Source: Escherichia phage WPEC2. From it: a stretch of 64,000 nt of DNA. Made by a program: the position numbers and the translations under genes. The notes below the pieces were generated by a model that saw nothing but the letters and a program-made list of their open reading frames with translations, made no database searches and had not been told where the DNA came from. Positions 55,655 through 56,248 of the stretch are shown here, piece after piece; within the stretch, counting starts at the first letter, position 1, and every line of letters starts with the position of its first letter. The stretch is from sequence record PV691511.1. One strand, 5' to 3'.

Positions 55655-56248
55655 TTACCAAGGAATATCATCTTCTTCCGATCTGGTATCTACTTGAGGT
55701 GGACGCGGAACCTTCACTTCTTTAACAAAACGTAGATATGGGAAACGTGTGGCAATTTTAATAACATGTTTGGCATCTTCTCTAACGTCTTTGTGCAAGA
55801 AGCAGATCCCTGTTTCCAAGGTTGTTTCAAAATCTTTAGAATAATAACAATCCTTCCCATCAAATGCAGCCTGGCAGATGGACAGATCGAACTCATTTAG
55901 AAAGGTTGTCATTACGCTTGGTTCCATAATCATAAGGTTGCAAAGCTGACCATCACGTTCAAACTCAAAAACGTGTTTAAGACCAGTAACACCTTCATAA
56001 TTGTCAGAAGCCTCTTTGTTTCCTAGTTTACGAATATTGGTTCCCATTAAAGCAGATGCAATTAATCCTTGTATTTGTTCTTCAGTCCGATGTGCAGGAA
56101 GGGATGTATAGAAATCCAGATCACGTCCAGCAATATCAAGAATACGCCAATCACGAACAGCACCGCCAGCCAAGACAGAATTAGGATCAGCGATCTTTAA
56201 TACGGTAAGAATTTCTTTGGCAATATTGATTTGTTTTGATTTAGTCAT
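55655..56248 (-). CDS. minimal nucleotidyltransferase resembling the CCA-adding enzyme/poly(A) polymerase head domain, with SSB-like C-terminal tail
   Basis: LAGGAVRDWRILDIAGRDLD parallels the GGAVRD...DxD head motif of class II tRNA nucleotidyltransferases; protein ends EEDDIPW. Confidence 0.5.
   Translation of the reverse strand: MTKSKQINIAKEILTVLKIADPNSVLAGGAVRDWRILDIAGRDLDFYTSLPAHRTEEQIQGLIASALMGTNIRKLGNKEASDNYEGVTGLKHVFEFERDGQLCNLMIMEPSVMTTFLNEFDLSICQAAFDGKDCYYSKDFETTLETGICFLHKDVREDAKHVIKIATRFPYLRFVKEVKVPRPPQVDTRSEEDDIPW

Follow-up and report, generated by a model that had tools for sequence, protein, structure and literature searches.

The replication region of Escherichia phage WPEC2 raises the question of what a small enzyme, named in public records for tRNA and ending like an SSB protein, is doing in a gene string headed by a DNA polymerase. 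The window analysed here is a stretch of 64,000 nucleotides (sequence record PV691511.1) from a Phapecoctavirus-type E. coli myophage, and its positions 54000-60300 are 100% identical to WPEC1, WPEC4 and WPEC6 and 96-98% identical to ESCO5, anhysbys and their relatives. The gene lies on the minus strand at 55655-56248, starts with ATG and encodes 197 amino acids, with the boundaries proposed in the first-pass annotation. A GGAG sequence is located 8 nt upstream of the ATG, and the start of the gene shares 8 nt with the stop of an upstream 72-aa open reading frame (ATGACTAA), an overlap that suggests translational coupling. Both the gene and its annotation at the level of fold are already public: existing records call it ‘nucleotidyltransferase’ or ‘putative tRNA nucleotidyl transferase / poly(A) polymerase’, its PHROG matches (PHROG 10174, E 6.5e-63, and PHROG 1614) are both labelled nucleotidyltransferase, and earlier papers have pointed out mini nucleotidyltransferases in phages (PMC7291057, PMC7693777). 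Scans of the protein with Pfam, NCBIfam and PADLOC returned sub-threshold matches to motif A or nothing, and the matches from a BFVD structure search are exclusively phage proteins that are unnamed or named by fold. In the searchable literature we found no biochemical study of this phage nucleotidyltransferase family.

The protein can be divided into a catalytic core of approximately 175 residues, predicted to take the class II ‘head plus first neck helix’ fold, and a short tail. The first-pass annotation had described a GGAVRD...DxD signature, and both of its halves are indeed present, as LAGGAVRDW (residues 26-34) and DLDF (residues 43-46). Together they make up motif A (V25-LAGGAVRDW...DLDFYT-S48, codons at 56104-56176 on the minus strand), which holds the glycine pair and the metal-binding residues D43 and D45. 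Across 54 family sequences A27, G28, G29, R32, W34, D43 and D45 are invariant, and a further set of positions (Q6, D21, D33, F46, Y47, Y84, F120, C125, F140, K164, F169 and P170) is conserved in at least 90% of members. The pol beta-superfamily signatures hG[GS] and [DE]h[DE]h are invariant in the family as well. A candidate third carboxylate, E95 on the strand formed by residues 90-98, is a glutamate in most members and Q, N, S, D or L in others. The segment N118-EFDLSICQAAF-128 (codons at 55865-55897, minus strand), in which F120 and C125 are nearly invariant across the family, falls at the position of motif B and DLTINA in class II enzymes, as judged from spacing and from the Gad2 profile alignment described below. 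The description of a class II-like head domain lacking most of the body also held, as the head and the beginning of the neck are followed by no body or tail domain. The core is acidic, with a pI of 5.8. The family is large, comprising 1044 clusters at 50% identity (E <= 1e-3), mostly stand-alone proteins of 170-230 aa; for those members that are fused, a Pfam scan of the N-terminal extensions gave no matches.

The public name implies a tRNA 3′-end enzyme, one that would add or repair the CCA of phage or host tRNAs, perhaps to counter damage to the acceptor end by host toxins, and repair or completion of tRNA 3′ ends had likewise been proposed in the first-pass annotation. On the side of this reading, motif A is nearest to CCA-adding enzymes (the best PDB sequence match is the CCA-adding enzyme 6ibp, E 0.0024 over 46 residues), the fold matches, and the phage has 10 tRNA genes together with RNA ligase genes. 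However, motif A is the sole stretch that aligns to PolyA_pol (PF01743), to CCA enzymes and to PcnB. Comparison with the PolyA_pol head-domain model, which had been suggested as a check, gave 13.8 bits (cut-off 23) for residues 26-65 alone, and the NCBIfam CCA model TIGR02692 gave 12.6 (cut-off 438.8). In profile-profile alignment with hhalign, the family reached 33.8% over 40 columns with E. coli CCA and 61.7% over 43 columns with PcnB, in both cases aligning through motif A alone.

The motifs on which CCA-adding specificity depends are not conserved across the family either. In class II enzymes, the RRD of motif B recognizes the ribose 2′-OH and is found just before D-[LF]-T-I-N-A, while the EDxxR of motif D is the amino-acid template that selects CTP and ATP. 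At the motif B site, E. coli CCA has KRRDLTINALA and the phage protein has NEFDLSICQAAF, so that RRD is replaced by EFD under an equivalence drawn by eye from spacing and the Gad2 alignment; the consensus of the 54 family members at this site is x-F-[DSGC], with no conserved arginine. At the motif D site, CCA has GEDPLRVLRVARF and the phage protein REDAKHVIKIATRF, again aligned by eye and by spacing. Here the query reads E157-D-A-K-H161, the arginine of EDxxR being a histidine, and the E-D pair is not conserved family-wide, where conservation around this site is confined to H/Y161, K164, F169 and P170. The body and tail domains that hold the tRNA are absent, and the core, as noted, is acidic. 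To our knowledge, the SSB tip has no link to tRNA metabolism.

The phage's own tRNA genes also speak against such an enzyme. Both ARAGORN and Rfam call five of them in the window (Gly, Gln, Pro, Ile and Met), and by reading of the sequence all five terminate in an encoded CCA. A tRNA-like gene ending in CCU, which had been put forward as a possible substrate, stands only in part: positions 534-608 of the window do form a degenerate cloverleaf that lacks CCA and has a canonical T-loop but an ‘anticodon loop’ of 4 nt, whereas neither ARAGORN nor Rfam calls a tRNA there. In ESCO5, RNA ligase and phosphoesterase genes lie approximately 5 kb from the tRNA cluster, and the nucleotidyltransferase is approximately 45 kb away, in the replication operon. 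Against this background the proposal of tRNA 3′-end repair or completion does not hold up well, and we consider a role in CCA addition or repair very unlikely. The fold is the only link between the gene and tRNA, and the annotation ‘putative tRNA nucleotidyl transferase / poly(A) polymerase’ is likely misleading.

A closer relative is found among anti-defence proteins. Gad2 is a 400-aa protein of Bacillus phage SPbetaL7 (ORF_159) that is required for the phage to overcome Gabija, is a predicted nucleotidyltransferase and is toxic on expression (bioRxiv 10.1101/2023.05.01.538930). We built a Gad2 profile from an alignment of Gad2 with seven published homologs taken from the supplementary tables of the same study. 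Aligned to these eight Gad2 homologs with hhalign, the phage family reached 96.6% probability (E 5.3e-10) over 125 columns, a span that begins before AGGA, passes through D-x-D and extends past a shared F-D-[FL]-[ST]-[IV]-C...A-F-D motif; against the single SPbetaL7 Gad2 sequence the values were 83.6% and E 8e-6. The eight-homolog Gad2 HMM scored all 54 family members at 6.5-38 bits, above PcnB (5.5) and E. coli CCA (-1.2), and matched the protein of the window over residues 11-140 with 12.4 bits. Precomputed matches to PF26128 (Gad2) were present for 20 of 58 family members, weak or faint where so marked, and absent for the 97%-identical cluster representative. On these profile comparisons the nearest characterized relative appears to be the N-terminal domain of the anti-Gabija protein Gad2 and not a CCA-adding enzyme, a relationship that the first-pass annotation had missed. 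The kinship is nonetheless remote, with an apparent identity of approximately 16-19% that covers the catalytic head domain alone, and a full-length Gad2 homolog was found neither elsewhere in the window nor in the ESCO5 genome. The searched literature yielded no description of a Gad2 mechanism and no earlier link between this phage nucleotidyltransferase family and Gad2.

The second distinguishing feature is the tail. The first-pass annotation had noted an acidic DDIPW ending that resembles the neighboring SSB-like protein, and the two C-termini bear this out, reading ...TRSEEDDIPW-stop and PPMDFDDDIPF. The terminal E-E-D-D-I-P-W is encoded at 55658-55678 (minus strand), with the stop codon (55655-55657) directly after it. 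It is joined to the core by a variable linker, predicted to be disordered from pLDDT and from variation among orthologs, which starts at about residues 177-180 (55709-55720, minus strand). The last predicted structured element stops at residue 175; residues 181-190 have a pLDDT of 56 and residues 191-197 one of 44. Across ten relatives sharing 58-97% identity, the linker beyond residue ~176 varies in sequence and length, and yet DDIPW is kept in nine, down to 58% identity, with DSFPW in the tenth. A search of ESCO5 (149,268 bp) for the pattern [DE][DE][IVL]P[FWY]-stop found 2 of 479 six-frame open reading frames where 0.0055 were expected, and the two carriers are the nucleotidyltransferase and the SSB-like protein. 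Chance resemblance of the tail is ruled out by this genome-wide rarity together with the conservation of the tip.

Outside the closest orthologs, the tip comes and goes. Close relatives carry it in ESCO5 (EEEDIPW) and in Citrobacter phage Tr1 (KPKDIPW), and it is absent from phi92 gp158, which is of the same subfamily and ends NNEEFKI, and from Klebsiella phage 05F01 (DSFEKF). Comparable endings recur in distant members, as PDDIPW (P0062), NDIPW (P0161), NDFPW (P0018), DDGIPF (P0199), KPIPF (P0149) and ESIPY (P0076). Counted over the family, an [IVLFM]P[FWY] ending is found in 6 of 147 representatives, compared with 15 of 1032 other open reading frames of the same viral loci (Fisher p 0.037); this enrichment of x-P-aromatic ends is about three-fold and statistically modest, and a looser class of acidic plus aromatic ends was not enriched (p 0.40). 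Judged from these sequences, the tip would be a real, selected feature of one lineage with sporadic recurrence elsewhere and not a family-wide trait. As many members of the family have no tip, it is not essential to the function of the family. We also considered whether the tips of the nucleotidyltransferase and of the SSB-like protein co-vary across Stephanstirmvirinae, and rejected this idea: in Tr1 the SSB tip is internal and KDIPW is nonetheless kept, and in 05F01 and L017 the SSB tip is terminal and the nucleotidyltransferase has none. A group I intron as the cause of the extended SSB C-terminus in phi92 and Tr1 was likewise discarded, with no Rfam match. W-ended tip proteins of other phages, examined as SSB candidates, belong to PHROGs of unknown function.

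The genes around the nucleotidyltransferase form a tightly packed operon on the minus strand, in the order polymerase, three small open reading frames, nucleotidyltransferase, Whirly-like gene and SSB-like gene. At its head is a family A (T7-like) DNA polymerase (56877-60209), and the gene string is closed by a terminator-like hairpin, bidirectional, at 54258-54281. Directly downstream of the nucleotidyltransferase, and always found between it and the SSB-like gene, is a 130-aa protein (55217-55609, minus strand) with a predicted fold of the Whirly/MRP/PUR-like class, whose members bind single-stranded nucleic acid. The SSB-like protein, two genes downstream (54313-55200, minus strand), has 295 aa, and its last 11 residues, the PPMDFDDDIPF quoted above, carry the exact host-type SSB tip. 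It matches PHROG 4477 and the C-terminal parts of SSB PHROGs, and its match to an NCBIfam SSB subfamily is confined to residues 254-295. To survey context more broadly, we took 80 IMG/VR loci encoding family members and sorted them by 50% identity, which gave 36 clusters. In 25 of these, a gene for a family A polymerase or T7-type primase-helicase is found at a distance of up to 7 kb; the distance is up to 2 kb in 20 and <=200 bp (direct adjacency) in 10, and the other 11 clusters have neither gene within 7 kb. In T7-like phages, genes beside the polymerase are often host-takeover genes, so adjacency is no proof of a replisome role, and the context fits both replisome function and conflict with the host. 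The contexts of three distant members (P0018, P0021 and P0031) are early-gene clusters, with RlaP and an RNA-ligase fragment nearby in two of the three. A link to RNA repair was considered for the present gene and set aside, as no neighbors of the RlaP or RNA-ligase type flank the nucleotidyltransferase in the window.

One explanation for this arrangement is that the protein is a housekeeping accessory of the replisome, whose tip binds the phage T7-like polymerase and whose enzyme modifies the 3′ ends of primers or nascent DNA, with no conflict with the host involved. The acidic, aromatic-ended tails of T7 gp2.5 and gp4 bind gp5/thioredoxin, and similar tails are present on replication-module proteins of two sampled loci, namely gp2.5-like SSBs (L037 and L089) and a primase-helicase-like open reading frame in L089 that ends DDRVPF. 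The co-orientation and tight packing of the gene with the polymerase, Whirly-like and SSB-like genes, and its direct adjacency to a polymerase or primase-helicase in ten clusters, speak for such a role as well. Set against it are the 11 clusters with no such neighbor, the nearest characterized relative being an anti-defence protein, and the fact that we know of no T7-type replication step that needs template-independent nucleotide addition. Moreover, many phages with the same type of replisome do without the gene, which argues that it is not a core replisome part: KP34 has no Autographiviridae-type analog in its first 22 kb, while fHe-Kpn01 has a distant analog, Gp22. Gp22, a mini class II nucleotidyltransferase of 182 aa whose gene directly follows that of the DNA polymerase, scores 18.8 bits against the family profile and is toxic in E. 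coli (PMC7291057), and toxicity of a distant analog to the host fits poorly with a housekeeping function. On balance, a role as a replisome accessory is unlikely.

The tail could alternatively be the main point of the protein, a high-affinity mimic of the SSB tip that would vie with host SSB for partners such as ExoI and RecQ, while the nucleotidyltransferase domain would be a scaffold, inert or regulatory. In favor of a decoy, the tip is conserved and terminal and sits on a flexible linker, and the third catalytic carboxylate is unconserved across the family. That competition between tips for their partners matters in infection is suggested by a 2026 preprint, in which defence-system activation is linked to host ExoI and to a phage SSB-like protein whose tip is FDDDIPF (10.64898/2026.04.29.721553). 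Yet GG...R...DxD is invariant in 54 of 54 sequences, including those with no tip, which argues for selection on catalysis, and most members of the family have no tip with which to compete. The SSB-like protein of the same phage, with its exact host tip and as an abundant multimer, would presumably be a far better competitor. We therefore hold a pure decoy to be improbable, at about the same level as a role in tRNA maturation.

The explanation that we tentatively favor, at somewhat less than even confidence, is a composite one, in which a tip-tethered Gad2-like enzyme acts at the sites of SSB partners, its probable role being counter-defence or host takeover. Recruitment of the tailed enzyme to SSB-binding partners, which the tip would presumably bind, had been the other proposal of the first-pass annotation and fits all of the evidence. 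In this composite explanation, a minimal and presumably catalytically competent nucleotidyltransferase core would be followed by a flexible linker of approximately 20 residues ending in DDIPW. Being acidic and having no nucleic-acid-binding body or tail domain, the core may be unable to find its substrate alone, and the tip would dock it into pockets that normally receive the SSB tip. Candidate docking partners are host SSB-interacting proteins, for example ExoI, RecQ, PriA, the chi subunit and RNase HI, and/or the phage T7-like polymerase or primase-helicase. Once docked, the enzyme would transfer a nucleotide from NTP or dNTP to an acceptor, most plausibly a 3′-OH at single-stranded DNA or at a replication intermediate. 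A role in counter-defence or host takeover is suggested by the homology to Gad2 and by the toxicity of similar proteins, and by analogy with Gad2 such a role would most likely serve to protect phage replication.

A more specific form of the same idea can be drawn, in which the tip serves as an address tag that delivers the Gad2-like enzyme to SSB-docking host proteins, where it nucleotidylates the partner or a DNA 3′ end and so disarms Gabija-type nuclease-helicase immunity or host exonucleases at phage forks. We regard this version as speculative and, taken in all its parts, decidedly unlikely. If it is true, the Gad2 family would gain its first mechanism, and a new principle would emerge, that counter-defence enzymes can be sent to their targets by co-opting the SSB interaction hub.

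Gad2 is a validated anti-Gabija protein, and the mini ‘tRNA nucleotidyltransferase-like’ genes of phages have been annotated by fold only. The comparisons made here appear to place the present gene, and with it a family of more than 1000 clusters at 50% identity, nearer to Gad2 than to CCA-adding enzymes. Within this family, one lineage with a conserved copy of the SSB tip gives a testable handle on where such enzymes may act, the indicated places being SSB-partner sites on replication intermediates. Should the tip prove to bind host partners of SSB, the protein would exemplify a phage enzyme that uses the SSB hub for targeting. The gene offers a clear lead, open to testing and based on a remote homology, on how and where Gad2-type enzymes work.

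Several known systems invite comparison. With the class II tRNA nucleotidyltransferases and bacterial poly(A) polymerase (1miv, 3h37 and 3aql), the phage protein has the GGxVRD...DxD of motif A in common, and the positions corresponding to motifs B and D are similarly spaced; it differs in being approximately half as long, in having no body or tail domains and in carrying an SSB-tip-like tail. The mini nucleotidyltransferases of Autographiviridae (Gp22 of fHe-Kpn01, those of Pectobacterium phages PP47, PP81 and Q19, and that of LKD16) are likewise stand-alone proteins of the class II head type, 170-215 aa long, with their genes beside that of the polymerase. However, they are only weakly related by sequence and are nearer to canonical class II enzymes in motif A, and Gp22 ends in EVRDAY with no DDIPW tip.

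The tail itself can be compared with the SSB C-terminus (DDDIPF): in both, a disordered linker leads to a terminal acidic run, then to I-P-aromatic and a free carboxylate. T7 gp2.5 and gp4, with tails that are acidic and aromatic-ended, are of the same general type. Two differences stand out. The tip is here on an enzyme and not on a DNA-binding protein, and its last residue is Trp instead of Phe, consistently across orthologs. We know of no SSB partner that has been shown to accept a terminal tryptophan, and in the searchable literature we found no copy of the SSB tip on a phage enzyme.

Gad2, finally, is phage-encoded like the present protein, and the two have AGGA...D-x-D-x-Y-F and a FDFTVCMGAFD-type motif in common. 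Short Gad2 homologs of 214-278 aa also exist and were listed by the discoverers of Gad2. Gad2 nevertheless has a further C-terminal region of approximately 250 residues, whereas the phage protein ends approximately 20 residues past the core. Gad2 also shows no SSB-tip-like tail, in an SPbetaL7 sequence that, as compared here, stops a few residues before the true end. The two differ in genomic setting as well, Gad2 being encoded in an anti-defence locus of SPbeta-like phages and the present nucleotidyltransferase in a replication operon.

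Tails resembling the SSB C-terminal tip (an acidic run followed by I-P-aromatic at the free C-terminus) are found on proteins other than the nucleotidyltransferase. In three other phage loci, replication-module proteins of 223-245 aa carry acidic tails with a terminal Trp, ending in GDDVPW (L039, 727-1416), DKDIPW (L046, 4134-4805) and EDTPW (L055, 7807-8544), so that W-ended tips are not exclusive to the nucleotidyltransferase; these proteins belong to PHROG 862/6599, whose function label is ‘unknown’. A weakly tip-like C-terminus (...GGDELQRLPF) is also present on a 74-aa ORF of the window (7366-7590, minus strand), the final 20 residues of which are identical to those of an ORF in the related phage ESCO5 (record 122372-122596, annotated gp185). 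Within the nucleotidyltransferase family itself, the metagenomic members P0120, P0139, P0111, P0161 and P0171 have N-terminal extensions of 90-210 residues for which a Pfam search gave no match, and two of these also bear tip-like tails (P0161, NDIPW; P0171, FSDDDF).

Between tRNA-Ile and tRNA-Met lies a degenerate tRNA-like cloverleaf (window 534-608, plus strand) with a folding z-score of -2.1. Its acceptor stem is 6 bp long, its T-arm is canonical, its ‘anticodon loop’ has 4 nt and CCA is lacking; neither ARAGORN nor Rfam called it as a tRNA. In ESCO5, outside the window, genes annotated as a putative RNA ligase, a phosphoesterase and a second RNA-ligase-like protein (L095 49556-50000 and L097 1-1901) lie approximately 5 kb from a 10-gene tRNA cluster and apart from the nucleotidyltransferase gene. 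This group looks like an RNA-repair cassette.

The DNA polymerase ORF of the window (56877-60209, minus strand) encodes 1110 aa, compared with approximately 865 aa in some relatives (e.g. locus L016), and its large insertion looks like an intein, judging from the translation. HNH endonuclease insertions in this region also vary between relatives.

The SSB-like protein encoded two genes downstream of the nucleotidyltransferase gene (54313-55200, minus strand; 295 aa) ends in PPMDFDDDIPF, an SSB tip of host type, while Pfam gives no SSB/OB match for it. A bidirectional terminator-like hairpin (54258-54281; 9-10 bp, T-runs on both strands) separates its gene from a convergent tail-protein gene. 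The SSB-like ORFs of phi92 (gp156, L003 6026-6973) and Citrobacter phage Tr1 (L002 6064-7035) extend 15 residues beyond DDIPF (APIGLQYGRNFLHCF), and the motif, being internal, should therefore not act as a free C-terminal tip in the predicted products. In both phages an HNH-like gene comes next after this ORF, and no intron was found there with Rfam. Among known systems, the DRT10 defence system is reported to be triggered by Bas52_0087, a phage SSB-like protein tipped FDDDIPF (2026 preprint, 10.64898/2026.04.29.721553); compared by tip alone, the SSB-like protein of the window shares this FDDDIPF ending.
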